NCBI GenBank assembly: GCA_051747585.1
Contig: JBNJGH010000038.1
Span: 1 to 29,792 of the forward strand
Source of the DNA: Candidatus Rifleibacteriota bacterium
GTDB taxonomy: Bacteria > Muiribacteriota > Ozemobacteria > Ozemobacterales > Ozemobacteraceae
DNA: 29,792 bases
Direction: 5' to 3'
Within the stretch, counting starts at the first letter, position 1, and each line of letters starts with the position of its first letter. Shown one piece after another: positions 1,408 through 20,373 of the stretch. The position numbers and the translations under genes are program-made. The notes below the pieces were generated by a model, which saw only the letters and a list, made by a program, of their open reading frames with translations, was not told where the DNA came from and ran no database searches.

Positions 1408-1449
1408 GATGACCTCTATTAACCCGAAAGCGGGTTTGATTAAAATAAT

Positions 1450-2156: not shown

Positions 2157-2281
2157 AAAGCAGGGGCTCTCGCAAAGATCAAAAAGGGCGCAAAGTAGTC
2201 AGAATGAAAAATTCGAATAGAAGAAAAGAAAGAAAAAAATAGAAAGCAGGGTTTCACGCAAAAAATGATAAGGGCGCTGAG
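2157..2281 (+). repeat. Two degenerate 39-bp direct repeats
   Basis: AAAGCAGGGGCTCTCGCAAAGATCAAAAAGGGCGCAAAG (2157-2195) vs AAAGCAGGGTTTCACGCAAAAAATGATAAGGGCGCTGAG (2243-2281); 29/39 identical by hand count. Confidence 0.55.
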
Positions 2282-2401
2282 GGAAAAAGATTCTCTGTGC
2301 TAATTTTCTTTTTTGGATTTGAGGCTTAGTGTGATAAATATTTTTTTTCTGCAACGAGTTGATAGTAGCTTACCAGGAATTGCTAAGCTGAGTTTAAAAA
2401 A

Positions 2402-2430
2402 TTGACCTTGAGTGGGCTTTGGTGTTTAAT
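2402..2430 (+). promoter_or_regulatory. Sigma70-like promoter for ridA
   Basis: TTGACC-17 nt-TTTAAT, 30 nt upstream of ATG 2461. Confidence 0.5.
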
Positions 2431-2460
2431 CAAGAAAACTTTAAGAAAGGAAAAGGAATT

Positions 2461-2844
2461 ATGAGCAGAAAGATCGTTTCTACCCGGAATGCTCCTGCGG
2501 CAATAGGGCCTTATTCGCAGGCTGTGTGTGCTAACGGGCTGGTTTTTACTTCCGGTCAGGTGCCAATAGTACCTGAGACAAAAAAAATTGAAGCCACCGA
2601 CATAGAGGGGCAAACCAAACAAGTCATGAAAAATCTTAAAGCTGTATTAGAAGCAGCCGGATCTGATTTTTCAAAAGTCATCAAGGCGACAATTTTTTTA
2701 AAAGACCTTGAACATTTTGGCAAAGTTAATGAAATTTACAGCCAGAGCTTTGGTGAAGAACCACCTGCAAGAGCTTGTGTTCAGGTAGCCAGACTGCCTC
2801 TCGACAGCCTGGTTGAAATTGAAATGATTGCCCTTACCGACTAA
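2461..2844 (+). CDS. ridA: RidA/YjgF/UK114 enamine-imine deaminase, 127 aa
   Basis: APAAIGPYSQAV, FTSGQVP, VNEIY..F...PPARACVQVARLP..LVEIE motifs. Start moved to ATG 2461 after AAAGGAAAAGGA. Confidence 0.95.
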   Translation: MSRKIVSTRNAPAAIGPYSQAVCANGLVFTSGQVPIVPETKKIEATDIEGQTKQVMKNLKAVLEAAGSDFSKVIKATIFLKDLEHFGKVNEIYSQSFGEEPPARACVQVARLPLDSLVEIEMIALTD

Positions 2845-2866
2845 AACTTGTCGACAAAACAGTTTA

Positions 2867-2909
2867 AATAAAAAATCCCGACGCTGTTTAAGCATCGGGA
2901 TTTTTTATT
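2867..2909. terminator. Bidirectional intrinsic terminator between ridA and tadG
   Basis: AATAAAAAATCCCGA...TCGGGATTTTTTATT inverted repeat with A/T tails between convergent genes. Confidence 0.85.
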
Positions 2910-2914
2910 GTTTT

Positions 2915-5611
2915 TTAATCTACCGGTACTTCTCCGGGTTTTACAATGTATCTTATAAATTTACCTCTAACCTGGCCGGGTTGATAAGAACCAAGATCTC
3001 CGCTGTCGCCCAGATCATAGTTTTCACCAATTCTGTTGTATTCATCCGGACCAAGTATTTCAAAAACGGCAAAGCCGGTAATTCTTACAGCCGAACCAAA
3101 ATCATAAAGGTCTGGGTCGTAAATTCCATCGGGATGATCGTTGCCCTGTAGATCATAGATGGTCATAGCATCTGCATTATGGGGGTTGTTTGCTGCAACT
3201 TCAGGTGGAACATCGGTAATAGGAACAACCACAATCTTGCTTGGAGCCAAGTCTGAGGTTCCTTCAAGGCGTGCGTCTACTCCCTGATCGGTAGGGCCAC
3301 GCATGTTACCTGATTCGGTAATTACTCTATCGCCTAATTCCATTGGTTGATTAAAGCCGTAAATTATTCTGTCGCGGTAATCATTGGCACCGCCGGCAAC
3401 ATTGTTATCAGGATCAATAGGCCCATAATTACTTTTTTGTTTGCCAGAAATTGTTGTAGTGCCAAGACTGACCTCTACTTTGTCTGTTAGAGCTCCCATA
3501 AGTATACTGTTTAACGGAAGTCTTGCCGTACTCTGGTTTTCGTAAGCTGAGCCTCCCATCATCAGGTATTTGCCGGTTTTATGGTTGCCCATGAGGTATT
3601 TGGCCCAGTCGGGAACTTTGTTCATTTGATAGCCAAGAATAATGACATTACTTTTTGTCTTATCGACTACGAAAGAGTTGGTTAAGCCATTGTCGCTAAA
3701 GCAGGCGTAGTCGAGATTGTGATTCTGACACGCGGGTTCTAAGGGTTCGAGTAGATTGAAGGGGTGTTGTCCGTCAATGGTGTTGATATTGGAATAAAAT
3801 AACTCGTTGTTGGTAAACCGTGGAAAGGTCACATAAGAAAAATCTTCAAATGCCAGGCAGTTTTCATAGGCATTTGTTGCTGACCAGCCATCATAAATTG
3901 CAGCCTGGTAAAGAGCCAGGTCAAGAGTTTCTGCTGTGAAACTCTGGGCAAATAATATGCCACCATTGCCCACATGATCTTTAAGATTGGCCGCAATCTG
4001 CCATTTCATTTTCTGAACTTTGCCTGCTTTGTCGAACCAGCCCGCCAGATCGTTGGGTAGTGCTCGGGAGCCATCTGAATAAACCGCATACTGAGGTTTG
4101 GGCTCCGAACCGGCATCGGAAGTAAAGCCATGGTTGTCGGCAATGGTTCTTAGAAGTTCATCATGCTTACATTGCTTACTTTCGTCTCCGCAGATGGTAA
4201 TATTTGAATTTTCGGCCCAGCGATTACCAAGATAGTCCATTTTATCAACACATCTACGCCTGACGTTCTGACAATTGTGAGTGTCATCGTCGGGGTTCGG
4301 GGCGTAAGTTGGGCTCCATTTATCATTTTTAGTGTTGTAATAATCGCGGCAGTACGGGCAAAAATGCTCGGCTGCAGCAATCCTTGAGCCTTCATTGTTA
4401 AGCTTACCCAGATAGCCATTTTCAAGGAAGTCTCTACAGGTGTAAAGCCAGAATTCACATCCATAGCTCATTCCAGTAAGGTCTTCATCGGTAGATAAAA
4501 CAACCTGGTATTGATCTAAGTTGCCATTCAATATTTCAGAGTCAGAAAAAGTTGAACTGTTTTTATCGCTGAATTTGCTGCTCCTGGTCCAGTTGCCAGG
4601 CAGACTGTAGGGACCGAAGGGTATTTTGGCTTCTGTAAGCACCATCTCGAGAGGTGTTTCTTGTTGGCTGGTTGAATATACAGCTATAGATGGTCTGTCG
4701 TAAAGCTCTTTAATTGTGTGACCTGTGACTCCATAAATTTCGTCCAGTACAGCTTCATCGATTATTTCTTCGTAGTTAACCGAATAAGATTTCAGTATGG
4801 ATTTTACATCGGCATGGTTTGGTACGAGAAAAGATCCGCCACGGTAACCCAATAGCCATTCTACGGGAACAAATCCCTGGTCGTTACTATCCATTTTCAA
4901 ACACCAGTATATTGCTCCATAAGCTGCTGTCAATCCTTCATTTGTCTGTGATTCATCCATGGGAATAAAAATTTTACCCGGATCATAAACTACAGGTTCA
5001 ACTGCATCTGGGTCTTTTTTCCCGCCAGAGCCCAGCTTCAATACGTATTCTGTGTCAGGTCTGAAACCCGTTACTCCGGGTACATCATTGGCAAGATCAT
5101 CGGCAAATAGTTCACATATATAGGTGTTTTTAGAAAGATCTTTTGTTACGCCATGGGGAATAGCGAAGGGTACAACTCCTTGACCGATGTCTTCTTCATG
5201 ATTTTTTCTTCCTGCAGAAACATTAGCGGTATTGAAATTCATAATTCTAGCAAAAAATAGCCCTACATCAACTCGTGCTCTTATTTCAAGACGATTGTTT
5301 GCACCAAAGATAACTTCGAGGTTTTCAAGCTGTTCTGCAGTGAAACCATTTTTTCGCATTACTTCCTCGATGTGAGAAATAATTTGACTCTTTTCATCCT
5401 CATCAAGCGCACCGTCATCTGATTTCATCATCATCATACGGTCGTAACCGGCCTTCCAACCAGCGTTGGTTGCAGTCTGAAGTTTTGACTGGCTGTAATA
5501 CATATAACCTACGTCTGTTACAAGACCAGTCATACTAATAAGAAAAACAGAGGCAAGCGCGGTCATTAATAAAACACTGCCTCTTCTTAAATTTAAAAAC
5601 TTTATAAACAT
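2915..5611 (-). CDS. tadG: Giant TadG-like minor pilin/adhesin (898 aa) with a large inserted domain
   Basis: Prepilin-like N-terminus RRG|SVLLMTAL...TGLVTDVGYMYYSQSKLQTATNAG (Tad domain). C-terminal motifs GVVPFAIP, YVLKLG, NYGPID..GGANDYRDRIIYG, TESGNMRGPT, IVVVPI, VRITGFAVF resemble Firmicutes-type TadG. Lies downstream of two tadE genes. Confidence 0.85.
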   Translation of the reverse strand: MFIKFLNLRRGSVLLMTALASVFLISMTGLVTDVGYMYYSQSKLQTATNAGWKAGYDRMMMMKSDDGALDEDEKSQIISHIEEVMRKNGFTAEQLENLEVIFGANNRLEIRARVDVGLFFARIMNFNTANVSAGRKNHEEDIGQGVVPFAIPHGVTKDLSKNTYICELFADDLANDVPGVTGFRPDTEYVLKLGSGGKKDPDAVEPVVYDPGKIFIPMDESQTNEGLTAAYGAIYWCLKMDSNDQGFVPVEWLLGYRGGSFLVPNHADVKSILKSYSVNYEEIIDEAVLDEIYGVTGHTIKELYDRPSIAVYSTSQQETPLEMVLTEAKIPFGPYSLPGNWTRSSKFSDKNSSTFSDSEILNGNLDQYQVVLSTDEDLTGMSYGCEFWLYTCRDFLENGYLGKLNNEGSRIAAAEHFCPYCRDYYNTKNDKWSPTYAPNPDDDTHNCQNVRRRCVDKMDYLGNRWAENSNITICGDESKQCKHDELLRTIADNHGFTSDAGSEPKPQYAVYSDGSRALPNDLAGWFDKAGKVQKMKWQIAANLKDHVGNGGILFAQSFTAETLDLALYQAAIYDGWSATNAYENCLAFEDFSYVTFPRFTNNELFYSNINTIDGQHPFNLLEPLEPACQNHNLDYACFSDNGLTNSFVVDKTKSNVIILGYQMNKVPDWAKYLMGNHKTGKYLMMGGSAYENQSTARLPLNSILMGALTDKVEVSLGTTTISGKQKSNYGPIDPDNNVAGGANDYRDRIIYGFNQPMELGDRVITESGNMRGPTDQGVDARLEGTSDLAPSKIVVVPITDVPPEVAANNPHNADAMTIYDLQGNDHPDGIYDPDLYDFGSAVRITGFAVFEILGPDEYNRIGENYDLGDSGDLGSYQPGQVRGKFIRYIVKPGEVPVD

Positions 5612-5635
5612 CTGAATTCTCCTCGATCGAGGTTA

Positions 5636-6076
5636 CTACTCTTTTGTTTCACTGGCAGAAGCGCTTATAGTAAGACCTCCATCTTTATTTTGTCCACCTA
5701 CCAATGATCCGATAAATGGAGTAATAAGACTCAGAGTAAAGGAAGCTTTGATTTCAACTGTTTTATCGTTGGTTCCGACTCCGGTAAAAGTTACATTAGA
5801 GTAATTTTCTTTTGGCATCAATGGTGATTGAAATTTCCAGAATGCGTTTTGCACTTCACTGAGCGGTGGGTGGGTCGAAGGTGAAAAAACGTTTCTGGCA
5901 ATCAAGGGGTTAATTCGTTTGGTTGCGGCTCTGGTGGCTTGGACACATTGGTAATTTAAGTTAGACCAAGCATGTAATGCCCGACCAAAATCAAAAATGC
6001 CGATTAGAACAAAAATAAAAATTGGCAGAACCAGTGCCATTTCGACTAAAGCTTGTCCATTTTTTCTTAATTTCAT
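5636..6076 (-). CDS. tadE: TadE-like minor pilin, 146 aa
   Basis: Start moved to ATG 6076 with AGGAGG RBS. MKLRKNG|QALVEMALVLPIFIFVLIGIFDFG is a class III signal with E+5. Confidence 0.92.
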   Translation of the reverse strand: MKLRKNGQALVEMALVLPIFIFVLIGIFDFGRALHAWSNLNYQCVQATRAATKRINPLIARNVFSPSTHPPLSEVQNAFWKFQSPLMPKENYSNVTFTGVGTNDKTVEIKASFTLSLITPFIGSLVGGQNKDGGLTISASASETKE

Positions 6077-6092
6077 TGATTTAACCTCCTGA

Positions 6093-6539
6093 TTAGTGCG
6101 AGGTAACAAGTTCAGGGATTTTGTAAGCGGCCTGGGCTGCCAGTCTGATACTTGATGCTCCGGTAACAGCTTCAAACATTACCTGGTAAAAAGGGGTGTA
6201 GGTTGGGGAATCATAGGTCATTAGGACAGAAACATATTCCCCGCCGGTCTGCGTTAGATCGCTGGTCTGAGGGGGCGAAACCGTGAAGTTTCCTGTCCAC
6301 CACTGTGGTCTACGTGAATTAGCATATTCTATTATTTCAGAATCTGAGGGTACAGTTCCGCTTCCCTGGCTTTCGGCTGCCCATTGTGCGGTATCGTTTG
6401 CTACCTGTTGCAATGACAGGAAATTGTAGAAAGCAAAACCGAAATCTATCAAGCCTCCGACGATTATCAGTATGAAAAAAGGAAAAACAAGAGCCATTTC
6501 GACAATTGCCTGGCCTTTGCGCTTTCTTTTTCTAAACAT
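6093..6539 (-). CDS. tadE: TadE-like minor pilin, 148 aa
   Basis: MFRKRKRKG|QAIVEMALVFPFFILIIVGGLIDFG TadE signature. Confidence 0.92.
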   Translation of the reverse strand: MFRKRKRKGQAIVEMALVFPFFILIIVGGLIDFGFAFYNFLSLQQVANDTAQWAAESQGSGTVPSDSEIIEYANSRRPQWWTGNFTVSPPQTSDLTQTGGEYVSVLMTYDSPTYTPFYQVMFEAVTGASSIRLAAQAAYKIPELVTSH

Positions 6540-6564
6540 AATCCACCCCCACTAATACTTAAAG

Positions 6565-7432: not shown

Positions 7433-7435
7433 CAA

Positions 7436-7478: not shown

Positions 7479-9929
7479 TTAATTTACGAATTCAATTTGC
7501 GCCATTTCTGTTTCCATGGTCAAGCCATCTTTGTAGAAATACTTAACTCTCCAATAGTAAGTTCCAGCTGCAGGAGTGTTGGGGGGATAGGTAAGGTAAT
7601 ATTCAATTACGTTACCTGAGGTTGATTCTGGACTGTGGTTTCCAATATGGACAAATTGGGTGCCATCGTGCTCATACATTTCCAGGACTGTGTGAGTGGC
7701 ATCTGAATCCTGGGGAACAGAAAAGACTTTGGTTGCAGTAGCGGTAGGAATTTTTATTGCGCCAACCGGAGTCATTTCTTTGGTTGAAGGTCTTACTCTT
7801 ACTATGTAGCTGTTGGACATGGCAAATTTATCTGGGGTATTGGGATCAACCGCCTTTGTGTACCATTCATAAACTCCAAAATCCAGTCCAAGAGTGGTGG
7901 GTTTAAATTGGTAACTATGGGCAGCAGTTGAAGATGTATCTGAAAGACTGAATGATTCGGATATAACCGGAACTTCGGCATCATTATAAACTCTTGAAAA
8001 ATCAAGAACTACCTGAGTTGATGTTCCAGGGCCTGTCCAGGAAAAGGCTAAGTCATCATCAAGAAAAGTTTCGAAATCGGTTTGTTTTGCTCCGCCCTCA
8101 ACTGAAAAACCTGCATCGCTAATGGCGTTAACTGTTGAAACAACATTGCTGTAAACAAACGAAGGTACAGTGAAGTCCATTACAGTGGTTTCACCGGCAG
8201 CGACTTTATAACCGTAAGCCAGAACAGGGTCTCGTTGAGCCCAAATTGCAGAAGTATTTGAGTAGACAACAACATTGCCGGTGTCGCCTTGTTCTACTTC
8301 AACAGTAGTATTTACAGGCACAGCAAACCACAAAAAGCCATTATCTTCAAAAGGAGGCAGTTGATCAATTCTCCATGTGCCATCTGCTGCGGAAATTATT
8401 GAACCGAAGCGGCGCACAGTACCATCTGCAGGATTATATTGCCATACATCAAACTCATATCCAGAATAGGGCTCCTGGTCAGAGGTAGGGTAATCATCCC
8501 CGTCCAGAACAAACTTTTTAACAGTTCCCATCAAAACGCCGCTTTGATGAAGATTTGGGTTAACGGTAATTTCATTGCCACTCAGGGTTAGGTCATCTAC
8601 TACCCCGGTAGCGTCGGCGTTGAATGTCTGGTTATTGTAATAAATGCTGTCTGCATCAGGAGCAGAAGTTGCCCGAACCTCAAAATTAATATTATAGGTA
8701 TTAACACCGGGTTGCTTTATTGTTAGTTTTCTTGAGCCTGACGCCACATTATTCAAGGTAAAGTAGCCCATGGCATCGGTAACTGTAGTTTGTCCTGAAT
8801 CCAGAGAGACCTCCGATACGCTTAAGGGGTTGCCGCTCAAAGGATCTATTACTTTACCTTTAATGTCCAGGGTTGCTATTTCAGAGCTTGCATTTTTTGC
8901 AACAATAGTAAAATTGCCAGTATCAAGCGTTCCATCCTCTTTAACAACGGCAAGCTTTGAGGCTTCAAAATAGCTCATGGTTTCTTCGATTTGTAGGACG
9001 AAAGTTCTGTGATCAAGTCCGTTAAAGTTAAATTCACCGGAAGTCAAGGTAACCATACTTCTATTAGTGTCATCTAATTGGCCAGTTTCATCATCTTGAA
9101 CCAAGAGGTTTACTTCCATATTTCCAATGGGCAATTCGTTTTCATTAACGACAACACCAGTCAAATTGGCATTGCCGGCTTGAAGATTGTTCTTAGCACT
9201 GATTTGAAAATTGCCCGTATCCAGGGTTCCAGATTGAGAAATTATCGCAAGTTTCGAAGCTTCAAAGTATTCAGCAGTTTCTTCGACTTTAAGTATATAA
9301 GTACCATTGCCCAAGCCACTGAAGTTAAATTCGCCAGTGGTTAGACTTGTCATACTTTTCCCAGTGTCTGTATAAGTGTTGGTAGAAAAATCATAAACCA
9401 GAAGTTTTACAGCTATATTTGCTGCCGGCTTTAGGTCATCTGTTACAACTTTACCAATAATTACGGAAGTTCCAGCATTAAGGTTGTCCTTTTCATAAAC
9501 AGTAAAATCGCCTGTATTAACTGAGGGTTCTCCGCCCACGACTGCTAATTTTGAAGCTTCTGAATATTTGGTTGTTTCTTCGATTCTCAAAATGTAGGTG
9601 CCTGTACTTAAGCCATTAAAGCTAAATTCGCCAGAGGTTAAAGTTGCCATACTCTTATTAGTATCAGTAATAGCACCAGTTTGTTTGTTTTGAATATACA
9701 GTTTTATTTGTGTATTTGCCAAAGGGGTACCATTATCATTAACAACTTTACCAAAAATACTTGATGTACCGGTTTCAAGTTCAGCATTAGAAGAACTTGC
9801 AGTCGTGCTGGCGGATGGGCCTGACGGATTATTGCCTCCGCCACAGCCGACTATGAAGGCGGTTGTCAGCAGGCCGGTAAAAATTACCAGATAGAAAAAA
9901 TTTGTAAAATATCGGTTTAACGACTTCAT
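7479..9929 (-). CDS. Large lipoprotein (816 aa) with tandem carboxypeptidase-regulatory-like (prealbumin-fold) beta-sandwich domains
   Basis: Likely start ATG 9929 (MKSLNRYF). Lipobox IVG|C, Ser/Gly linker, then GKVV...G.PL.N..V.L.....T...GEF.F.GL..GTY.L repeats. Confidence 0.85.
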   Translation of the reverse strand: MKSLNRYFTNFFYLVIFTGLLTTAFIVGCGGGNNPSGPSASTTASSSNAELETGTSSIFGKVVNDNGTPLANTQIKLYIQNKQTGAITDTNKSMATLTSGEFSFNGLSTGTYILRIEETTKYSEASKLAVVGGEPSVNTGDFTVYEKDNLNAGTSVIIGKVVTDDLKPAANIAVKLLVYDFSTNTYTDTGKSMTSLTTGEFNFSGLGNGTYILKVEETAEYFEASKLAIISQSGTLDTGNFQISAKNNLQAGNANLTGVVVNENELPIGNMEVNLLVQDDETGQLDDTNRSMVTLTSGEFNFNGLDHRTFVLQIEETMSYFEASKLAVVKEDGTLDTGNFTIVAKNASSEIATLDIKGKVIDPLSGNPLSVSEVSLDSGQTTVTDAMGYFTLNNVASGSRKLTIKQPGVNTYNINFEVRATSAPDADSIYYNNQTFNADATGVVDDLTLSGNEITVNPNLHQSGVLMGTVKKFVLDGDDYPTSDQEPYSGYEFDVWQYNPADGTVRRFGSIISAADGTWRIDQLPPFEDNGFLWFAVPVNTTVEVEQGDTGNVVVYSNTSAIWAQRDPVLAYGYKVAAGETTVMDFTVPSFVYSNVVSTVNAISDAGFSVEGGAKQTDFETFLDDDLAFSWTGPGTSTQVVLDFSRVYNDAEVPVISESFSLSDTSSTAAHSYQFKPTTLGLDFGVYEWYTKAVDPNTPDKFAMSNSYIVRVRPSTKEMTPVGAIKIPTATATKVFSVPQDSDATHTVLEMYEHDGTQFVHIGNHSPESTSGNVIEYYLTYPPNTPAAGTYYWRVKYFYKDGLTMETEMAQIEFVN
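8880..9770 (-). repeat. Three tandem 297-bp (99-aa) intragenic repeats
   Basis: EASKLA codons recur at 9553, 9256 and 8959 (exact 297-bp period); shared SM.TLT.GEF.F.GL and TG.F motifs. Confidence 0.92.
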
Positions 9930-9969
9930 CCCTCGTTCTCCTTTCGGGGCGAGCAATTCTCTGATTCTC

Positions 9970-10335
9970 TCAACATGTTATTTGCTCCATTACAAGAATA
10001 TCATCTATCTCAAGGCCGGCTTTTTCGATAGAGCCGGCTTTAAGTTCGAGAACCTTTACGGCGTTGCGGTGTATCGAAGACAAGCCGGTCCAGGGTTTTA
10101 ATTTAGAATACAGGGCCTTAATGCGGTTTGTGGCATCAAGAAAAATAGCATCGATAGGAAACTTCATGAACATCATATGAATAGAATTACATGGCGAAAT
10201 AAGTAATCCTTCGCCTTCTTCGAGCTCTGACTGCATCATTAAACCGCGAAACCTTTGCCAGAAGGTTTCAGCAGTTCTGATCTTTTCGCCCAGAACCTCA
10301 TTTGTTCGTTTAACTGTAATTTTTAGTAGATTCAT
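9970..10335 (-). CDS. DUF192 family protein
   Basis: AETFWQRFRGLM..EGEGLLISPCNSIHMMFMKFPIDAIFLD..VLELKAG; a family often found in tad loci. Confidence 0.9.
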   Translation of the reverse strand: MNLLKITVKRTNEVLGEKIRTAETFWQRFRGLMMQSELEEGEGLLISPCNSIHMMFMKFPIDAIFLDATNRIKALYSKLKPWTGLSSIHRNAVKVLELKAGSIEKAGLEIDDILVMEQITC

Positions 10336-10337
10336 AT

Positions 10338-11276
10338 TTAATTTAAAAGATTGGTTTTGTTAAGCTCGTCAATTATCTGAAACAGAGCCGGACAACCGAT
10401 AACTATACCTACATTTGGGAAAATAAAGAATACAAGCGGAATCATCATTTTAACCGGAGCTTTGGCGGCTTCTTCTTCCGCTCTTTGCCGCCTTTTGTCG
10501 CGCAATTGCTCAGACTGGATTCTAAGAACCTGACCGATTGAAACACCCAGTTGGTCAGCTTGGATTATGGCTGAAACAAAAGCATTGAGATCCGGATGGT
10601 CTATACGATCTCCCATGGCTTTGAAAGCGTCTCTACGAGCCTGCCCCATACGCATGTGTCGCAATGTCAGGCTGAATTCATCGGGAATAGGACCGCGCAT
10701 TTTTTCGACAACCTTGTCACAGGCTGCGTCAAAACCAAGCCCGGCTTCAACTGCTACAGTCAAAAGATCTAGAACATCAGGTAGCTGTCGCTGTATGCCA
10801 TGCAGGCGGTTGGCAATTTTGCGCTGAAGAAAAAATCTCGGTGCAAGAACTCCAAGCATTAAACCTATTACCGTTGACAGAAAGAGGAGGCCGGGATTGA
10901 TAATCAGAGAAAATGCCGCAAAAGCAACCGGAGTAATTACCCTGAAAAGATTTTGGATTACGACAAATTCACCGACAGTAAGGCCACCGGGATAACCTGC
11001 CTGAGCAAGTTGCTTTTTTAGTGTGCTTTTTTGTGCTTTTTTTAAATCCTTCGGATCCTTTTTGCCGGCAAGCCGTGCTAGAAATGGCCTGATGACACGC
11101 TCAGAAAAAGGCTTTCTAAGCTCTGAGGTAGCTTCGATAGACGAATCCTCATCTATCGTTCCGTCATCAAGTGCGCTTAATCGATCTTGAATATCGCTTT
11201 TAGAACCGGATGGGAACAAAAGAAGGATTATCAGAAAGATTATAAACCCACCCAGTATAAAAAATAATAAATTCAT
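10338..11276 (-). CDS. tadC: TadC inner-membrane platform protein (T2SSF family)
   Basis: LPDVLDLLTVAVEAGLGFDAA, QADQLGVSIGQVLRIQSEQLR, AEEEAAKAPVKMMIPLVFFIFP. Confidence 0.95.
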   Translation of the reverse strand: MNLLFFILGGFIIFLIILLLFPSGSKSDIQDRLSALDDGTIDEDSSIEATSELRKPFSERVIRPFLARLAGKKDPKDLKKAQKSTLKKQLAQAGYPGGLTVGEFVVIQNLFRVITPVAFAAFSLIINPGLLFLSTVIGLMLGVLAPRFFLQRKIANRLHGIQRQLPDVLDLLTVAVEAGLGFDAACDKVVEKMRGPIPDEFSLTLRHMRMGQARRDAFKAMGDRIDHPDLNAFVSAIIQADQLGVSIGQVLRIQSEQLRDKRRQRAEEEAAKAPVKMMIPLVFFIFPNVGIVIGCPALFQIIDELNKTNLLN

Positions 11277-11286
11277 AGCTAGTTCC

Positions 11287-12342
11287 TCACACTTCTATAT
11301 CAACAATTTTCATGATGATATACATGCCAATTACTTCCCATATCAGGCCAAAGATCAGAACAAACCAACCTCTGAAAGCACCATACTGGAAAGTGAAAAG
11401 TTGCATGATGAAATCGGGGTTAATCAAGTAAATCATGAAACCAATGCCCAGAGGGAGAGCTCCTACAAGAGCTCCGGAAACCTTTGCCTGAGCAGTTTTG
11501 GTTTGTATGTCGCCCTTGATTTTCATTCTCTGGCGTATAGTGTGACTTATTTTTTCGAGAATCTCGGCAAGGTTTCCACCTACTTGTCTTTGAATTAGAA
11601 CAACTGTGGTAACCAGATCCCAGTCTTCACTATCGATACGGTCGTTAAGGGCCAGAAGGGAATCTTCGAGGTTAATACCCAGTCCGTTTTCTTTTAATAC
11701 TCTTTTTAGCTCGGTAGACATGGGAGGAAGCGATTCTCTGGAAACCATTTCCATTGCCTGAAGGAATGAGTAGCCGGCTTTGAGGCCATTTGCCAGCATG
11801 ACAAGAGTATCGAGAATCTGCTCGTTAAATTCCTGAATTCTTTTCTTTTTTAAATATCCTACCCAGATTAACGGAATAAAATAACCTGTTATTGCCAGAA
11901 GGATACCCAGAGGGATACTCTTGAAAAGCATCATTCCCAAAGAAAGTGATATCATTACAGCCAGAAACTGGATAGCGACAAATTCATTGGCTTTGAGTGG
12001 AATATCCGCTTTGGCCAGCTGGCTGGCAATTCGCATGGCCATGCCTTTGGGAGTAATTATACTGCCCACGTTGGCAAGTATTTTTTTTACGCCGGAGGAG
12101 CCTTTTTCGCCCCTGTTTTCGACAAGCCAGTCATCATCGGACACTTCTTTTGGTTCATCTTCATCGATGAATTCACTTTCCGGATCAGTATATTCTGTTG
12201 CGGCCATCTCTGTTTCAACCAGGTATTGTTCCATGCGGTTTCTAACGTCCTCTCCCGGTGGTTTCCCGAAAATAGAAAACAGCAAAAGAACACCAAAAAC
12301 CGTTGCGATAGCTGCAAAACCTATGAATATAAACTGAAGCAA
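11287..12342 (-). CDS. tadB: TadB inner-membrane platform protein (T2SSF family)
   Basis: LANGLKAGYSFLQAM, IQRQVGGNLAEILEKISHTIRQR, C-terminal KIVDIEV. TTG start. Confidence 0.95.
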   Translation of the reverse strand: MLQFIFIGFAAIATVFGVLLLFSIFGKPPGEDVRNRMEQYLVETEMAATEYTDPESEFIDEDEPKEVSDDDWLVENRGEKGSSGVKKILANVGSIITPKGMAMRIASQLAKADIPLKANEFVAIQFLAVMISLSLGMMLFKSIPLGILLAITGYFIPLIWVGYLKKKRIQEFNEQILDTLVMLANGLKAGYSFLQAMEMVSRESLPPMSTELKRVLKENGLGINLEDSLLALNDRIDSEDWDLVTTVVLIQRQVGGNLAEILEKISHTIRQRMKIKGDIQTKTAQAKVSGALVGALPLGIGFMIYLINPDFIMQLFTFQYGAFRGWFVLIFGLIWEVIGMYIIMKIVDIEV

Positions 12343-12346
12343 AGCT

Positions 12347-13717
12347 TTACCATCCTCTCGAAGAATCAGTAAAAATGTTGGGGGGAAGTTTTATTCCAGA
12401 TTCTTTGAATTTTGAAGCAAATTTTGGCCTGATTCCTGTTGGTTTAAGTCTGCCAACAATTTTACCCTGTTCGTTCATACCCGTTTGCTCAAATCTAAAA
12501 ATATCCTGAGTTACGACCTTGTCGCCTTCCATACCCTGGATTTCAGTCAAATGGGTAACTTTTCTAGAGCCATCCTTTAGACGCGATTGTTGCAATATTA
12601 AATGCACAGCTGAACTAATTTGCTCCCGAATAGCGCGTACCGGCAAATCCATTCCTGCCATCAGAACCATTGTTTCAAGACGGGCAAGCATGTCACGTGG
12701 GGTGTTGGCATGGCCTGTGGTTAGTGAACCATCATGACCGGTGTTCATAGCCTGAAGCATATCCAGGGCTTCGCCACCACGACACTCACCTACAATTACC
12801 CGCTCGGGTCGCATACGAAGAGTATTTTTTATCAGCTCACGCATGGAGACAGCACCTTTGCCCTCGATATTCGGTGGTCGAGTTTCAAGTCTAACTACGT
12901 GGGGCTGTCTGAGCTGCAATTCTGCGGCATCTTCGCAGGTAATAATTCTTTCGTCTTCAGGAATGAAAGAGCTTAAAATATTCAATGTGGTTGTTTTACC
13001 TGAGCCGGTACCACCTGAAACAACGATGTTAAGTCGAACCTTAATGCAGGCATCAAGGAAGTCAGCCATCTGTTGAGTTAGGGTACCGAATTTTACCAGG
13101 TCAGCTATACCGAGAGCTTCTTTTTTAAACTTCCTGATCGTGATTGTCGGGCCATTGAGAGCAAGTGGCGGAATAATCGCATTAACACGAGAGCCATCGG
13201 GCAGACGTGCGTCGACATAGGGAACAGACTCATCGATTCTACGGCCGATGGGCGCAACGATGCGTTCGATAATGCGCATCACATGATCGTTATCTTTAAA
13301 CTTGACGTCAGAAAGGATTAACTTCCCTGACTTTTCATAATAGATTTGAAAAGGCCCGTTGACCATGACTTCCGAAATCTCTTCCTGTTCTAGAAGAGGC
13401 TGAATTGGTCCGAAGCCTATCATGTCATCTAGCAGCGTCTGGCAGAGAGCGTCAACCTCTCGCTGAGAAAGAGTGATATTGAGCTTGGGACTTTCTTCGC
13501 CGATAACCTTAAGAATTCTTTCGCTCAATAGAGCGCGTTTCTTTTCCATATTAGTCTCAGCCATAATTGACTGAGGCATGTCATCGATAATTTTAGTTTG
13601 AACTTTATCTTTTAATCTCTCAAAACCGGTAATTTCCCGCGTTGAAGTTACTTCGGTAATGCTGGATTTATCACTTGATTTTTTTTCTTCACTGAGGCGT
13701 GATAATAGACCACCCAT
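12347..13717 (-). CDS. tadA: TadA/CpaF pilus assembly ATPase
   Basis: Walker A GGTGSGKTT, EDAAEL, LRMRPERVIVGECRG, AMNTGHDGSLTTGHAN; GGAGG RBS. Confidence 0.97.
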   Translation of the reverse strand: MGGLLSRLSEEKKSSDKSSITEVTSTREITGFERLKDKVQTKIIDDMPQSIMAETNMEKKRALLSERILKVIGEESPKLNITLSQREVDALCQTLLDDMIGFGPIQPLLEQEEISEVMVNGPFQIYYEKSGKLILSDVKFKDNDHVMRIIERIVAPIGRRIDESVPYVDARLPDGSRVNAIIPPLALNGPTITIRKFKKEALGIADLVKFGTLTQQMADFLDACIKVRLNIVVSGGTGSGKTTTLNILSSFIPEDERIITCEDAAELQLRQPHVVRLETRPPNIEGKGAVSMRELIKNTLRMRPERVIVGECRGGEALDMLQAMNTGHDGSLTTGHANTPRDMLARLETMVLMAGMDLPVRAIREQISSAVHLILQQSRLKDGSRKVTHLTEIQGMEGDKVVTQDIFRFEQTGMNEQGKIVGRLKPTGIRPKFASKFKESGIKLPPNIFTDSSRGW

Positions 13718-13731
13718 AATTTACCTCCAAA

Positions 13732-14940
13732 TTATTGACCAAAAAGAAGATCTTTGATTTTTAAGATAGCACTTTTGCCGGTATCTTGCCCATCTGAATC
13801 TTTGGGCCCGATAATCTTGTCAGCCATACCTATAATGGACCTTGCAATGGCACTGGTTGGTGACTTTAAAACAAAAGCTTCGCCATGGTTAAGGGATCTT
13901 TGCGCAATCTCCGACTCCATGGGTACGGTTGCATAGACAGGGATGGCAAGACCTGTTTCGAGATCCTGCTTTCCTATTCCTACGTTAGGTATTTCCTTAT
14001 TGAGAATAAGTTTGATTTTAGAGACATCAAAGTTGATGTCTGAAAATGTTTTGAGACATATTTTTGTGTTTTTCAATGAGCTTATTTCAAGTGTTGCAAC
14101 CAATAGAACCAGGTCGCTCTTATCAAGAATTGCCAGCTCTTTTTCAGTTATGCTGGGTGGAAGATCAAAAATAATGTATTGATATGAACCTCTGGCTTCT
14201 TCGATAATCTTCATTATATGCTCACTTTTGATAGCTTCGGCCAGTGCCGGTTCTTTGGGCGCTAGAAGAAGATCGAGTCCTGATTCATGTTTTACAATAT
14301 TTTTTTCTATTTCTTCCAGAGTAATTTCATCTGCTTCAACAAGGTTAGAGATGCTTTTTTTTACTGGTTGATTCAAGGTTATGGCAACATCGCCAAACTG
14401 TAAAGAAGCATCAATGAGTAATACCTGGCGATTTCTACTGGCTAGATTGGCTGCAAGATTTACTGCCAGCGTTGTTCGTCCGACACCGCCCTTGGTTGAG
14501 AAAAAAGTTATCAGTTCTGCGCTCTCTTCTTCGGCAAAGGCATCGGGCCTGTCTTTGATCCAGCTGTTAAAAACATTTTGGATGGTATCTATAAGGTCAT
14601 TAGTTGAGAAGGGCTTAACCAGAAAGTCTTTAGCGCCGGCTTTCATTGCTTTGCGAAAATATTCCTGCTCACTCTGAATAGACATAATTACCGTTTGAAC
14701 ATTGGGAAAATCTTTGGCAATCATTTCAGTGGCTTTAAGACCGTCTATTTCGGGCATATTAATATCCATCAAAACAATATGGGGCTGCAGCTCTTCGACA
14801 AGCTCGACGGTTTCCCGCCCATCACGGGCTTCGCCAACAATTTTAATTTTATCCTGATTGTTTAGCATTCTTCTGACATTAGACCTTAATTCATCCATAT
14901 CGTCAGCGATGAGTAATTTTATTCTACGATTAAAAGCCAA
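13732..14940 (-). CDS. cpaE: CpaE/TadZ: receiver domain plus MinD/ParA-like ATPase
   Basis: REC domain IADD...LMDINMP...FLVKP, then STKGGVGRTT, IDASLQFGD, IFDLPP; directly upstream of tadA. Confidence 0.92.
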   Translation of the reverse strand: MAFNRRIKLLIADDMDELRSNVRRMLNNQDKIKIVGEARDGRETVELVEELQPHIVLMDINMPEIDGLKATEMIAKDFPNVQTVIMSIQSEQEYFRKAMKAGAKDFLVKPFSTNDLIDTIQNVFNSWIKDRPDAFAEEESAELITFFSTKGGVGRTTLAVNLAANLASRNRQVLLIDASLQFGDVAITLNQPVKKSISNLVEADEITLEEIEKNIVKHESGLDLLLAPKEPALAEAIKSEHIMKIIEEARGSYQYIIFDLPPSITEKELAILDKSDLVLLVATLEISSLKNTKICLKTFSDINFDVSKIKLILNKEIPNVGIGKQDLETGLAIPVYATVPMESEIAQRSLNHGEAFVLKSPTSAIARSIIGMADKIIGPKDSDGQDTGKSAILKIKDLLFGQ

Positions 14941-14999
14941 GACTTTTCCTCTTACTGACCCGGCTTGCGCCGGAAAATTTTAACAGCCGATGAAATGTT

Positions 15000-16700
15000 T
15001 TAATTTTCAGCGGGCAAATGACTTGATTTAATCTGCTGGAAAATTTTGTGAAGCTTTTCCAGCTTATCTGTTCTTCTGGGGATTTGAACTTCTTTGTATT
15101 TTTTATTGCCGGATAAATCCCGTTCAGAACTGAGGATTTTTGGTGTCAGAAGAATAACGAGCTCATTTTCACTCATGCTTTTGTTCCTGCTTTTGAACAA
15201 GCGACCGACAAGTGGAAGATCACCCAGAAGAGGAACTTTATTCCAGGTAACATTATCAGTACGATTGATCAGCCCACCCAGAACTATTGTTTGTTGATCT
15301 TTAAGTTTTAAAGTGGTCATAATACTGCGCTTCAAAATATCTGGAGGGGCGTTGGTTCCGCGGGTGAAACTTGGTTCAGCTTGTTTGGCGAAAACAGAGA
15401 ATTTTAATTCGTTTTTGTGAACGAATAGATCTCTTATTGAAAGTTTGAGGGCAGCTTCTGCTTTTGTATAGGTCGGATTTCCACTTGCATCAATGGTTGA
15501 TGGGTAGTAAATATCCTGACCAACATTTACGTAAGCAATCCCGACATCTTTTTCTATATCCTGCTCTTCCTGGGTATCTTCTTCCTCGTTGGTCCATCCG
15601 GCCTTTGCAAGTTTTAAAGCCGAGGCGTTCGCATAAACCATTAGTTTGGGATTAGCCAGAATTTTTGCTTTTCCACTGGTTTCCCAGGCTTGTACTTGAG
15701 CTGCAATCAAGTCAAATCTGTTGATATTATTCATTTCAAAAGGATTTAAATCTTTCGGCACAGGAGCTCCTATAGACTGCACATCGCCTCTGAAATCATT
15801 GCTTTTATTTTCAATGAAACCAAGAACACCTGTTATTACATTACCTTCGTCTCCTGATTTGCCCCATTCGATTCCGAGGTCTTCAGTGTTGTTTTTACTT
15901 ACCTGGAGAATATAGGCTTGAAAAACAACCTGAGTCGGGCTTTCAATAATTACCAGGTTACTGATTTGTTCAAAACTGTTAACGAAGCCTCGCACAGTTT
16001 CCTGGAGGTGAATATAATCATTCTGATTTTTTACCTTACCTTCAAGAACTACTCTTAGATTTGTTGTGTCGGTTCCGACCAGTGAATTAGATGTTGTTGG
16101 ATTCTTAGGATCAAAATTAGAAGAAATGACGCTGACTTTTACGTCGGGAAGCTGTATTGCGGCTTCTATCCTTTGTTGTAAAGAAGGGGAGTTTACTTCA
16201 AATTGGATTAAATTAAGAATTTTGCGGTCTTTTATCAGACTCGATGCAATTTTTTCAGCTTGAAGCTTATCTTCTTCAGAGGTTACTTGCCCTTTAAGAT
16301 AGGCAGCGTCGGGAAAAATTATCAGCTTAACCGAAGGAATGTCTAAAATCGATGAAAACTTTTGCTGAATTAGTTTGGGTTCTGAGTAGGTTTCAACATT
16401 ATAAATTCTTCTACCGGATGTATCCCAGAGGATTATCTGGGTAATGCCTGGTTCCTTACCGATACCGGAAAGAATAATTTCTTTGTCGGAAACATTTAAA
16501 ACTTCGACAATTCCCTCTTTAACCGCCAGAATCTTTTTAACTCCGTTGGCGGGTATGCTGGTAGACTTGCCTATAGGAATCATGAGCTTTTCTGCTGCAA
16601 TTACCTGGTGTGAATAATTTGTAAATATGACAGCGAGAATCAACGTTAAGAGTACAAATTTGAATTTTATTGAATTAAGTATCATTGTGATTCTCCTCAT
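15000..16700 (-). CDS. cpaC: RcpA/CpaC Tad secretin (N-domain, BON-like domains, secretin core)
   Basis: GITQIILWD N-domain, QVVFQAYILQV..DLGIEW, GKAKILANPKL, TIVLGGLI..KVPLLGDLPLVGRLFKS..ELVILLTP. Start is 16700 (ATGA overlap with cpaB) or 16685. Confidence 0.92.
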   Translation of the reverse strand: MRRITMILNSIKFKFVLLTLILAVIFTNYSHQVIAAEKLMIPIGKSTSIPANGVKKILAVKEGIVEVLNVSDKEIILSGIGKEPGITQIILWDTSGRRIYNVETYSEPKLIQQKFSSILDIPSVKLIIFPDAAYLKGQVTSEEDKLQAEKIASSLIKDRKILNLIQFEVNSPSLQQRIEAAIQLPDVKVSVISSNFDPKNPTTSNSLVGTDTTNLRVVLEGKVKNQNDYIHLQETVRGFVNSFEQISNLVIIESPTQVVFQAYILQVSKNNTEDLGIEWGKSGDEGNVITGVLGFIENKSNDFRGDVQSIGAPVPKDLNPFEMNNINRFDLIAAQVQAWETSGKAKILANPKLMVYANASALKLAKAGWTNEEEDTQEEQDIEKDVGIAYVNVGQDIYYPSTIDASGNPTYTKAEAALKLSIRDLFVHKNELKFSVFAKQAEPSFTRGTNAPPDILKRSIMTTLKLKDQQTIVLGGLINRTDNVTWNKVPLLGDLPLVGRLFKSRNKSMSENELVILLTPKILSSERDLSGNKKYKEVQIPRRTDKLEKLHKIFQQIKSSHLPAEN

Positions 16701-17704
16701 TCTCTCGATTGTCTTGCTGGTGTCTGACTTGCTGACGGATTATAAGAAGGGGCCGCGAGTTTATAATCTTTTAATTGACGGAATTTTGTTCCTGCAGGTC
16801 CTCCATATTTATAAATCTCCCGTTTAGAACTGGCTCCGTACATAATTTCAACCTTGCCGTCATCCATCGGTTGTGAAACAATTTGGGTTGTGTCAGTTTC
16901 TTCGCTGTCCTGAGCTGTCTTTTCAGTCATTTCGTTGGCTGGAATATGACCAATGTCCTGCATTACAATTCTTTCGGTGGCACCTTTGGTTACAATTCGT
17001 CTGCCTTTATCCTTAGGGTTTTTCAAGACAAATCGGAATGTTGCGCTGTTATCTAAATACATAAGTCTTTCAAGTTGCGAGGGTGTAACCGCCAGAGTAA
17101 CGAGTTCAACTTTAGAGGCTGAAATTGATGGAGAAGAAGACGCGGTCGAGCTGTCAAACTCGTATCGGCCTCCAACAGCAAGAATTAGTATGTCCTGCAT
17201 TACTATTTTTGTAATTGGATCAGCGTTTCTAGGTCGGAATGATGCAATTACGTCAACAAAGTCACCCTGTTGAATAAATCCTCCAACCGAAGTTACTTTC
17301 GAAACCGCTATTGAAACAGCTCTTCTTCCCGGAGGGATTGCCCGGGCAAGGTTGGGGACAGAAGATTCATCGAACAATCTCATTGGTGTCATTATGTCGC
17401 CTGGTAAAAGAGTTACTGCAGTATAACGCCCCGTTAAAGATGCTACATTGGTAAGAGCCATCTCTGGTGCGGCAGAAGCTATAACCTCTTTTATTGCGAA
17501 GGCGCTTTCTACCAGTTCCGGCTCCAACCTGGTTCTGGCCGCAATTCTTTTCGTACTTACAACAACCGGCTTCTTTAAAATCGTGGGTTGTTGTACAACC
17601 GGTGCTTCAATCTCTGGTGGTTTGTCTGTTTGAAGCTTGTTCCATAAAAGCATGGAGATAGCCAAACTGGCTACCAATGCAACAAGTATCGCTTTTCGAT
17701 TCAC
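16697..17704 (-). CDS. cpaB: CpaB/RcpC Flp pilus assembly protein, 335 aa
   Basis: GTG start at 17704 with GAGGAGG RBS. SAF-like region, IPPGRRAVSIAV..VGGFIQQGDFVDVI, ILILAVG, VTLAVTP. Confidence 0.93.
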   Translation of the reverse strand: MNRKAILVALVASLAISMLLWNKLQTDKPPEIEAPVVQQPTILKKPVVVSTKRIAARTRLEPELVESAFAIKEVIASAAPEMALTNVASLTGRYTAVTLLPGDIMTPMRLFDESSVPNLARAIPPGRRAVSIAVSKVTSVGGFIQQGDFVDVIASFRPRNADPITKIVMQDILILAVGGRYEFDSSTASSSPSISASKVELVTLAVTPSQLERLMYLDNSATFRFVLKNPKDKGRRIVTKGATERIVMQDIGHIPANEMTEKTAQDSEETDTTQIVSQPMDDGKVEIMYGASSKREIYKYGGPAGTKFRQLKDYKLAAPSYNPSASQTPARQSRE

Positions 17705-17740
17705 GGTTGAGGATCCTCCTCGACACAAATTTAATTCAAA

Positions 17741-17770
17741 AATATAGCACAGGTTAACTTTAACCTGCAA
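17741..17770 (-). promoter_or_regulatory. Sigma70-like promoter of the cpaB unit with an overlapping inverted repeat
   Basis: TTGCAG-18 nt-TATATT with extended -10 TGn; perfect inverted repeat CAGGTTAA-CT-TTAACCTG at 17750-17767. Confidence 0.55.
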
Positions 17771-17855
17771 GGACGATCTCTTTAGTCGACAATAGATTGG
17801 GATTGCTTTATGAATTTTGTGAAAATGTACAGTTACTTATTGTTGGTTTAATAGG

Positions 17856-18419
17856 CTATAAGCTGAGGCTAAAACTGTAGAAAACCGCTATGATAGTTGC
17901 TAAAAATATATCGACCCCCAAAAGAAATCTGACCTTTTTATTTTTTTGATTAAGACAAAGATTCTCTTTTTGTATTGTTTTGTCAAGGAAAGATTTTGTC
18001 GAAAAACTTGTTAGCAACATGGAAAGCGCATTTCTGCGATAATTGATAAATTGGACAATCAAGGCGTGGGGAATTCCCAAAATTGAAGTGTACAAAAACA
18101 CTGAGATTACAAAGTTTGTACCGCAAAGAGAGCCAATAGCTGCCATGAGTTTAACATCACCCATTCCTACGATCCCCAAAGCAGCGGGGATGAAATAAAG
18201 AGCAATGCCAATTAGAGTAGCGGCAAAACTGTAAGCAAAACCAGATAGACCAAAAAAAATCAAGCTGATTGCCCAGCCAGCTAAAATCATGGGAAAAGTC
18301 AGCCAGTTATAAATTTTGCCTTTGATCATATCGGTCAGCATTGCAATAAAAGCAATTGTTACTGCAAGAAGCTGTGCGATATATTCGGGTTTGGCTGTCA
18401 GGTTTTCAAGATTTAACAT
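17856..18419 (-). CDS. cpaA: TadV/CpaA prepilin peptidase (A24 family)
   Basis: TDMIKGKIYNWLT and GMGDVKLMAAIG aspartate motifs, multiple TM segments. Start is ATG 18419 or TTG 18425. Confidence 0.92.
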   Translation of the reverse strand: MLNLENLTAKPEYIAQLLAVTIAFIAMLTDMIKGKIYNWLTFPMILAGWAISLIFFGLSGFAYSFAATLIGIALYFIPAALGIVGMGDVKLMAAIGSLCGTNFVISVFLYTSILGIPHALIVQFINYRRNALSMLLTSFSTKSFLDKTIQKENLCLNQKNKKVRFLLGVDIFLATIIAVFYSFSLSL

Positions 18420-20373
18420 ATCCAAAAATCTTAGCGTTAATTGATTTTAACAGCTTTCGGGAAGCTTTAAGGTCTTTTTTGGAATCTTTTTCGTTGTGCA
18501 TAAATACCATTGCTCCACTCTGTCCAGCCATTATTCCAGTATCAGGATATTCCAGCAGTGGTGCTGTGTCAATTAAAATAACTTCGACTCTTCTCTTCAG
18601 TTCCGACAGTATTTCTATCATTTCGGGCGAGCCGAGAAATTCAACCGGATTCTGGGGGGCTATGCCGCTACTCATAAGATGAAGATTTTCAACGAAGGTT
18701 TTTTGTATCTGACTTGGGTGAAAACCATTTTGTAGAGCTTCTGATAGGCCTGAAATGTTTTCGAGATCAAATACTCGGTGCAAAACAGGATTTCTGAAAT
18801 TTGCATCGAGCATTAAAACTGAATAGCCGGCTTGGGCCAGAAGAATGGCACAGTTTGCCAGTAGAGTAGTTCTCCCGATTCCGGCTCTAGCAGAACCAAT
18901 AAGCACTATTCTGGTTTGTGATTCTGAAATGTTAATCTGGAGATTTGATACGAGTGATTTGTATGGAACCAGAGCAGGAGAATCGGGATTGTTTAATGCT
19001 ATTAGTCTTTCATCGAAGTTTGTTGGTTCAGCGTCTATTTCCGGTGCCGGTAAAGCTAATGGCTCGCTGGAAAGTGCCGGAACTTCAAGAATGGTTTCGA
19101 TAGATTCAATTCTCAGCTGCGGGGAAACTTGATACTGTTGGCCTACCGCGCCTGCGAGAGCTTCGCCTGAAACCGAAACTATTTCTGTTCTTACCGGTGC
19201 GGGAGAGTAGAGAAGAAAAACAGCAATCAGAACTCCGGAAAGCAAGGCGATGCAATCTCTTTGCACTGCCGAGAAACCTACTGTTGAAGGTTTGTTGGCG
19301 CTGTTCTTGAGAACGGAAATTTTGCCACTGGTTGTTGTTCGGTTAATGCGAATTTCTTCCAGGGCAAGAAGTTGTTTCTGGTGGAGGGATTCAAGGGCCC
19401 TGATTCGTTGATTTATATTATTGATTTGATTTTCTTTCAGGTTTTCCTGCGAGTTTTCATGTAATCTGGTTCTTTTGAGTTCGCCTCTTATTAGTCCCAG
19501 CTTTTCTCGGTCGCTTTCTATCTCGGCAGAAAGGGCCAGGTAGTTTTTATTTGCTTTTTCTTTGCGAACTTTTGTAATGGATTTTTTTAGTTTCTTGTTG
19601 AGTGAGCCTATTTGCGATTTGCATTTTTTAACCTTGGGGTGTTTGCTTTTATAGGTTTTAAACAAGTTGGCGAGTTCTTTTTGTGCTTTATTTAGATCTT
19701 TGGATAATTTGCGGTAGTTGTCATTTTCTTCTTCTTCATAATAAAATTTCGTTTTTGAAGTTGTTTGCAGCTTTCTACTGTTTAATTCAATTCTTTCTTC
19801 GAGTTGATGTAGCTGATCTTCAAGTTGCAGCGTCAGTTCATCAACTTTAATCGTGGTTTCGGTGGAAGCTTTAACCAGAGCGTCTCGTGCCTCTTTCAGG
19901 GCTTGTTCTAGCTGGGTGACTTTACGGCGGGCGGCTTTGATTTCAAACTCTTTTTTTTCGTCACTGTAGAGAAGGAAGTGATCTGACAGAATTTTGATTG
20001 CGGATTTTGTAATGTCGGTAAGTTCAGATGGTTCGTGATAATGGGCAGTTAATTTTACCATGCTGCTACCTGCATCAGAAAAGCTTATAACATTTTTATT
20101 TATAACTTCATCGGCTGAGAGGTTACTTTGCCTGGCAAGCTCTATCAGAACATCGTTCTGAGAAAAAATTCCATTCATTGCGGCAGCAAAATCAGAAGTT
20201 TCGGAATTTTCTGTTGTCATTACCCTTAAGAGGGCCTGACTCTGGTATTCCGCCGGAAAATAGCGGTTCAGTATTACCGAACCCAACACTGCAAGGCCAA
20301 CAATAATTGTTGCCAGCCCGGCATTTTTTCTTAAACTTCGTGAAATTCCTTCTATAAGGCTTTCCTGGATCAT
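18406..20373 (-). CDS. Wzc/GumC-like polysaccharide co-polymerase with a degenerate BY-kinase domain, 655 aa
   Basis: Start moved to ATG 20373 (AGGAGG RBS). Two TMs flank a coiled coil with YKSKHPKV; cytoplasmic CpsD/CapB-like domain with GSARAGIGRTT, LDANFRNP, ILIDTAP. Confidence 0.85.
   Translation of the reverse strand: MIQESLIEGISRSLRKNAGLATIIVGLAVLGSVILNRYFPAEYQSQALLRVMTTENSETSDFAAAMNGIFSQNDVLIELARQSNLSADEVINKNVISFSDAGSSMVKLTAHYHEPSELTDITKSAIKILSDHFLLYSDEKKEFEIKAARRKVTQLEQALKEARDALVKASTETTIKVDELTLQLEDQLHQLEERIELNSRKLQTTSKTKFYYEEEENDNYRKLSKDLNKAQKELANLFKTYKSKHPKVKKCKSQIGSLNKKLKKSITKVRKEKANKNYLALSAEIESDREKLGLIRGELKRTRLHENSQENLKENQINNINQRIRALESLHQKQLLALEEIRINRTTTSGKISVLKNSANKPSTVGFSAVQRDCIALLSGVLIAVFLLYSPAPVRTEIVSVSGEALAGAVGQQYQVSPQLRIESIETILEVPALSSEPLALPAPEIDAEPTNFDERLIALNNPDSPALVPYKSLVSNLQINISESQTRIVLIGSARAGIGRTTLLANCAILLAQAGYSVLMLDANFRNPVLHRVFDLENISGLSEALQNGFHPSQIQKTFVENLHLMSSGIAPQNPVEFLGSPEMIEILSELKRRVEVILIDTAPLLEYPDTGIMAGQSGAMVFMHNEKDSKKDLKASRKLLKSINAKIFGYVKS

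Follow-up and report, generated by a model that had tools for sequence, protein, structure and literature searches.

A probable Tad tip-pilin gene whose predicted amidotransferase-like insert has lost its three conserved motifs

An 898-residue TadG-like pilin with a split C-terminal domain

We analysed a stretch of 29,792 nucleotides from a Candidatus Rifleibacteriota genome (GenBank assembly GCA_051747585.1, contig JBNJGH010000038.1), referred to below as the window, whose minus strand carries a complete tad locus according to its open reading frame (ORF) list and Pfam matches. Within this locus, adjoining two TadE/F-like pilin genes, lies the gene for P0001, a TadG/CpaL-like large minor pilin of 898 amino acids (aa). 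The N terminus of P0001 matches the Pfam Tad family (PF13400) at 28.5 bits against a cut-off of 22.3, and Gly11 is encoded at 5579-5581. The parts of the gene, all on the minus strand, are as follows.

2915..5611, minus strand: TadG/CpaL-like large minor pilin gene, 898 aa (P0001; from the ORF and Pfam)
5186..5611, minus strand: N-terminal pilin module, aa 1-142, with basic leader, Gly11, hydrophobic helix and head (PF13400; the end of the head is a probable boundary)
5024..5179, minus strand: first half of the TadG C-terminal domain, aa 145-196 (GVVPFAIP to YVLKLGSG), contiguous with the second half in seven insert-free paralogs
4703..4978, minus strand: N-terminal subdomain of the insert, aa 212-303, common to a stand-alone family by profile alignment; no fold identified
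4460..4702, minus strand: predicted amidotransferase-like core, first part, aa 304-384, with the His-His of HHED replaced by Thr374-Asp375 (4487-4492)
4034..4459, minus strand: Cys-rich sub-insert nested in the core, aa 385-526 (about 140 aa), eight cysteines
3488..4030, minus strand: predicted amidotransferase-like core, second part, aa 528-708, with the elbow Cys replaced by Ser557 (3941-3943, codon AGT) and the His by Ser688 (3548-3550)
2918..3448, minus strand: second half of the TadG C-terminal domain, aa 722-898, ending RGKFIRYIV, a candidate strand that may return to the pilin head (role suggested by PMC13533445)

A sequence-only reading of this DNA had described a tip pilin whose C-terminal domain is interrupted by an apparently inactivated amidotransferase-like domain. 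The layout it gave was accurate, as all 16 of the strings that we looked up are present in the ORF in the order given (among them GVVPFAIP at aa 145, YVLKLGSG at aa 189, IFIPMDESQ at aa 214, LSTDED at aa 372, FAQSF at aa 554, GGSAYE at aa 686, NYGPID at aa 728 and ITGFAVF at aa 844). Paralogs lacking the insert show that the two flanks are one domain: EYILK is joined directly to the C-terminal half in seven proteins of 355-412 aa. At the same point, three paralogs of 523-548 aa contain the C-terminal domain a second time, nested, and one has a Thr/Ser-rich linker. The split point in TadG is thus an insertion point. Pfam scans detected no vWA family in P0001, and the insert belongs to a different family.

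The insert has insertion points of its own. After HHEDFTG, P0001 has about 140 Cys-rich residues, P0064 about 30 residues and P0112 about 1050 residues that include TIG domains; the fusions of one other family (f4) place a copy of the TadG C-terminal domain between the N-terminal subdomain of the insert and its core. The Cys-rich sub-insert of P0001, which splits the insert and is missing from the stand-alone family, has seven cysteines present in 37 of 37 rows of alignment A1 and one in 36 of 37; these eight cysteines likely form disulfides.

P0001 is not an assembly error. The gene is covered by contigs from four RNA-library runs of a single salt-lake study, of which one spans 3116-6501 with one letter different and another 3147-5761 with none; they confirm the letters at all three altered sites and do not prove transcription. 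A separate protein, P0002, which is 63% identical to P0001, has lost the same three motifs.

The insert is homologous to a mislabelled stand-alone family

The same genome encodes, on contig C70, a stand-alone protein of 420 aa, P0161, whose relatives bear the NCBI name 'asparagine synthetase B'. A profile built from 37 fusion proteins aligned colinearly with P0161 over aa 210-712 (hhalign; 351 columns, probability 100%, E 2.6e-48), demonstrating the homology that had been proposed from motifs alone, and doing so over the full stand-alone protein. The family is large, with at least 8,000 candidates at E≤0.001 (8000 of 8000 scored). It had been taken for a Bacteroidota family; it does include Bacteroidota, but it is not confined to them, since P0161 is encoded here. 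P0161 has no match to a Pfam family and nothing relevant in NCBIfam, and no model in either library covers the insert. Asparagine synthetase B proper consists of a class-II (Ntn) glutaminase and an Asn_synthase domain; with no such match in P0161, and with a fold resembling class-I glutamine amidotransferases (GATs), the label is a misnomer.

The class-I amidotransferase-like fold proposed earlier holds for the stand-alone family, for which P0161 gave a confident model, and is predicted by homology for the insert in the window. In the P0161 model the Cys lies exactly at the strand-turn-helix elbow and the His follows a strand at the place where GATs carry a His; the elbow position in P0001 was taken from the model of the stand-alone protein. 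Foldseek ranked the Cys hydrolases PuuD and SpuA high for this model, and the Cys and His positions of the family line up with those of a BPL_N protein. The fold search covered stand-alone residues 112-416, so that the N-terminal subdomain of the insert was barely tested.

Upstream of the stand-alone gene, on the contig that encodes P0161 (positions 94-8000), are DUF4159, DUF4175 and a TPR gene. DUF4159 is weakly similar to the stand-alone family, and in seven further genomes of this bacterial family a single contig carries both it and the stand-alone gene, separated by about 7 kb.

All three motifs are kept or lost together in the fusions

To place the P0001 insert among its relatives, we scored the His-His (HHED), Cys (MC) and His (GH) motifs in fusion sequences, 205 of which reduced to 100 at 95% identity. 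All three were kept in 79 and lost in 18; no sequence had lost only some of them, and three were incomplete. The 38 stand-alone rows comprised 32 intact sequences, two that differed only in His-His, one scored as lost at all three and three that were incomplete. P0001 is among the 18 dead copies, as the sequence-only reading had suspected, with Ser557, encoded at 3941-3943, at the elbow and Ser688 in place of the His. The elbow residue is Gly or Asp in 14 dead copies and Ser in P0001, P0002 and two others, the His is lost in all 18 with varying replacements, and we found no new residues shared among them.

The dead copies are scattered. A tree built from the flanks only (76 rows, 15 of them dead, after four rows were dropped for short flanks and two for missing motifs) requires five changes, showing that the losses arose about five times, and a tree of the insert with the motif columns masked scatters the dead copies too. 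One dead clade of ten rows persists. Orthologs from the same genus (in genomes G014, G016 and G017) are intact, and those in G014 and G017 have the same gene order; together with the scatter, this indicates that the lineage of the window, which includes P0002, lost the site secondarily. Because 79 of the 97 complete fusions are intact, the dead state is not the design of the family, and the earlier proposal that the fold was recruited as a non-catalytic module does not stand: the dead copies are scattered secondary losses. We found a dead copy in 12 of the 40 genomes examined.

Disarmed inserts evolve under relaxed constraint

We compared nonsynonymous and synonymous rates (dN and dS) between related sequences. 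The dN/dS of the core was 0.12-0.32 in dead pairs (5 of 8 measurable) and 0.08-0.19 in intact pairs (8 of 10), ranges to be read knowing that the pairs are related and dS is near saturation. The ratio of core dN to flank dN was 1.75-2.39 in all eight dead pairs, versus 0.23-1.80 in ten intact pairs. These ranges and ratios indicate that the dead insert is relaxed but is not decaying freely. P0001 and P0002 are 49% identical in the second part of the core and 71-74% in the flanks. The cluster around P0002 shows fewer differences in the insert than in the flanks (1/180 in the second part of the core, 11/191 in the N-terminal flank). Purifying selection is expected for any insert in a needed protein; it is not evidence of binding.

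The fusion is common in the phylum and its insert may be exchanged

Of 51 genomes of this Riflebacteria-like family, 41 carry the fusion and two more have contig-end fragments of it; the queries used did not find it in the other 8. It also occurs in G003 (family f3), in G004 and G005 (f4), where up to five TadG genes stand in a row, and in G078, G080 and G082 (f11). A scan of 185,579 species with patterns from the window family, of which the best 80 matches were kept, gave 72 loci. Fusions or fragments, most of them titled Riflebacteria, Ozemobacteraceae or uncultured, make up 30 of these; the other 42 are stand-alone genes, and among these matches no Tad domain was found near any of the 42. 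The architecture is common in this phylum and is not catalogued as a Pfam or NCBIfam model of the insert. The survey of paralogs and orthologs that the sequence-only reading called for yielded both intact Cys/His versions and other contents at the insertion point, namely a nested C-terminal domain and a linker.

The flanks of one fusion, P0064, are 66-71% like those of P0001 and P0002, and its insert comes from another clade. When congruence was forced, the log-likelihood dropped by 96 and 218 units (fast search, 2000 replicates). Unless the P0064 contig is chimeric, this points to an exchange of inserts.

Further TadG loci were noted outside the window. Locus L323 (G005, contig C13, 1-20000) holds five consecutive TadG genes, four of which encode proteins of 924-934 aa with a C-terminal domain copy inside the enzyme-like insert; HHED is present in two of these and the Cys elbow in all four. 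TadG fusions of 1790-1900 aa, seen at L325 and L328 and in P0112 and P0300, have more than 1000 residues inside the enzyme-like core, with TIG domains in P0112 and P0300. In G019, stops split an insert-free TadG paralog (L033, 9532-10602), located apart from the main tad locus, into two frames.

Origin and possible role of the disarmed insert

We consider it slightly more probable than its negation (about 0.52) that P0001 is a disarmed descendant of a likely enzyme-tipped Tad pilin, with the insert kept as a structural remnant. An ancestor in this phylum would have inserted an exported Cys-hydrolase-like domain into a loop of TadG. Cargo would be placed in a loop, and not appended, because the last strand must return to the pilin head. 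The intact form may be a Cys-nucleophile amide hydrolase acting on a peptide or gamma-glutamyl type bond in material that the pilus contacts. P0001 itself would be cut at Gly11 and join two TadE pilins at the tip. Assembly would begin once its last strand had folded back onto the pilin head, in the manner of CpaL; of 81 fusions, 74 retain a strand-like pattern at the C terminus. Several lineages lost the site while the domain presumably stayed folded, and in that of the window catalysis would have become dispensable, leaving a bulky, non-catalytic tip. No second TadG of the P0001 family was found in this genome (93.6% complete), and the disarmed copy, as the only TadG found, would still start pilus assembly. 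What keeps the insert folded is probably that the two halves of the cell's sole TadG must meet.

Several observations weigh against this account. The fold of the window copy and the co-folding of its flanks are carried over by homology, and the dN/dS of P0001 itself is not measurable because dS is saturated. Neither the GATase (0.1%) nor the DJ-1 (0.3%) alignment was matched in profile comparisons, and no activity is known for any member of the family. The best fold matches (top VIA matches) include GH42 middle domains and ThuA-like proteins, which are not known to carry the triad. In catalytic class-I GATs the third residue is the Glu of a His-x-Glu pair; the Asp-Pro-Glu after the His is deleted in intact fusions of the window family (GGHYH versus GHDPE), so that even 'intact' fusions may lack the third triad residue. 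H-D-P-E is present in 26 of 32 stand-alone members and H-D-P in f4 and f11 fusions. Finally, 7 of the 12 genomes with a dead copy also hold an intact one, which fits a selected second role equally well.

That second role could be binding, which would make the adhesin idea of the sequence-only reading a derived state: the disarmed insert would be a pseudoenzyme that grips whatever substrate or surface its active counterpart would cut, providing a sticky tip beside or instead of a cutting one. The roughly five origins of dead copies, the persistence of the ten-row dead clade, the coexistence of dead and intact copies (in the same locus in three of the seven genomes), the retention of the insert although insert-free paralogs exist and the conserved insert of the P0002 cluster all fit such a module. 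We nevertheless think it somewhat unlikely, since the dead copies share no new residues, their inserts diverge faster relative to the flanks than those of intact pairs, as is also seen between P0001 and P0002, and the need to fold would alone explain the purifying selection. A new catalytic activity, with Ser557 as the nucleophile of a serine hydrolase, would account for the Ser at the elbow of four dead copies; the loss of the His in every dead copy, its differing replacements, the Gly or Asp at the other 14 elbows and the faster evolution of the region make this form of the changed chemistry mentioned in the sequence-only reading very improbable.

The three motifs may instead form a metal or ligand site, so that the whole family would be a non-enzymatic GAT-like binding domain and P0001 would have lost the site. 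In the stand-alone rows, His166, Asp168 and Cys230 do not vary (25 of 25), HHED presumably occupies the place of the Gly-rich loop of class-I GATs, and the GH42 middle and ThuA-like matches and the fusions without a Glu after the His point the same way. The Cys exactly at the elbow and the His after the strand, as in GATs, their alignment with the BPL_N protein and the high ranks of the Cys hydrolases PuuD and SpuA argue against such a site, and we regard a binding family of this kind as quite unlikely.

A broader speculation, which we hold doubtful, concerns the whole phylum. These bacteria would run an exchangeable arsenal of Tad tips on one TadG scaffold that is empty, self-nested, armed with a Cys hydrolase or turned into a disarmed, substrate-gripping adhesin, with inserts being swapped. 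Armed tips without the third residue of the triad might even trap what they target in a covalent thioester, and the window would represent a pseudoenzyme-only state.

Genomic setting

The other genes of the tad locus are listed below.

5636..6175, minus strand: TadE-like minor pilin 1, likely tip partner (PF07811)
6093..6539, minus strand: TadE-like minor pilin 2, likely tip partner (PF07811)
7479..18425, minus strand: rest of the tad locus, with prepilin peptidase, RcpC/CpaB, secretin, CpaE-like protein, CpaF ATPase, TadB, TadC, DUF192 and an 825-aa protein (Pfam)

Two Flp pilins are encoded outside the window, on contig C47 of the same genome. The tad gene order is the same in relatives of the same genus, and the named homologs are from Candidatus Riflebacteria. 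The 825-aa protein (7479-9956) has carboxypeptidase-regulatory-like repeats and a fixed position in the locus; its orthologs vary in length between about 370 and 960 aa. A Wzc-like tyrosine autokinase gene (18406-20418) immediately precedes the prepilin peptidase gene, a placement kept in relatives. An intergenic gap of 940 nucleotides (6540-7470), the position of which is occupied by a disarmed TadG gene in several relatives, contains short repeated elements: a 29-nucleotide direct repeat at 6700 and 7046, a 41-bp imperfect hairpin at 6798-6881 and a perfect 17-bp hairpin at 7436-7470. Two further ORFs, 1450-1992 (180 aa) and 28202-29518 (438 aa), matched no family in the libraries scanned; the first adjoins RidA and is conserved there in relatives.

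Relation to known systems

Modular adhesive domains are a known feature of Tad tips. In the literature searched, most of it free of subscription, we found no report of a likely enzyme on a Tad tip that exists in matching armed and disarmed forms, and among the papers listed none was on a TadG/GAT-like fusion or on the stand-alone family. The new elements are the test of the fold, the all-or-none losses, the series of paralogs and the probable exchange of inserts. That three motifs far apart in the sequence disappear together, and have done so in about five lineages, points out the probable active site of a large, unstudied and mislabelled family and makes its function directly testable. The natural series of empty, nested, armed and disarmed forms bears on how a tip pilin can accommodate cargo while its C terminus continues to initiate assembly. 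Taken by itself, the copy in the window is degenerate and tells less than the series does. Bacteria of this group would be predicted to display active or disarmed enzymes on their pili.

Earlier reports provide the closest parallels. TadE/F/G trimers with modular distal domains and paralogous tips have been described (PMC12075869), CpaL carries a split vWA domain (PMC12607857), and this Caulobacter TadG ortholog donates its last strand to its own pilin head, with part of piliation remaining when its middle is deleted (PMC13533445). The large minor pilins TadG, CpaL and KilN have in common with P0001 the N-terminal Tad pilin motif, two adjoining TadE genes, a large extra region, paralogous tips per genome and a candidate C-terminal strand, and CpaL also has a split domain with inserted subdomains. 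The proteins described here differ in that the cargo inside the C-terminal domain is predicted to be an enzyme-like GAT-fold domain, not a vWA domain or one of no known fold, and comes in both an intact and a disarmed version. A survey of modular type IV pilins describes 264 architectures, including predicted S74 and M26 peptidase modules, in which an effector module is likewise grafted on a pilin for display; the available text of that survey, which used the IPR012902 motif and C-terminal fusions, names no Tad pilin or amidotransferase-like module, and its Dataset S1 may bear on novelty (PMC8179133). The part of PMC7509429 that is accessible holds nothing on these pili.

The stand-alone family (Bacteroidota, Zixibacteria, Ignavibacteria, KSB1 and Riflebacteria) has the same three motifs as most fusions. 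Its members have a signal-peptide-like start, match a type IX secretion system (T9SS) tail model in 8 of 53 rows of alignment A3 and keep GHDPE, whereas P0001 lacks all three motifs and has the Cys-rich sub-insert. The fold of residues 112-416 of the stand-alone model is common to the class-I GAT-like superfamily (PuuD, SpuA, lin1909, STM3548, ThuA-like proteins, MetA, HisH and the GH42 middle domain), and, like class-I GATs, the model has a Cys at the elbow and a His after a late strand. It differs from them in its 7-15% identity, extra N-terminal subdomain, HHED loop, exported location and the lack of any synthase partner seen.
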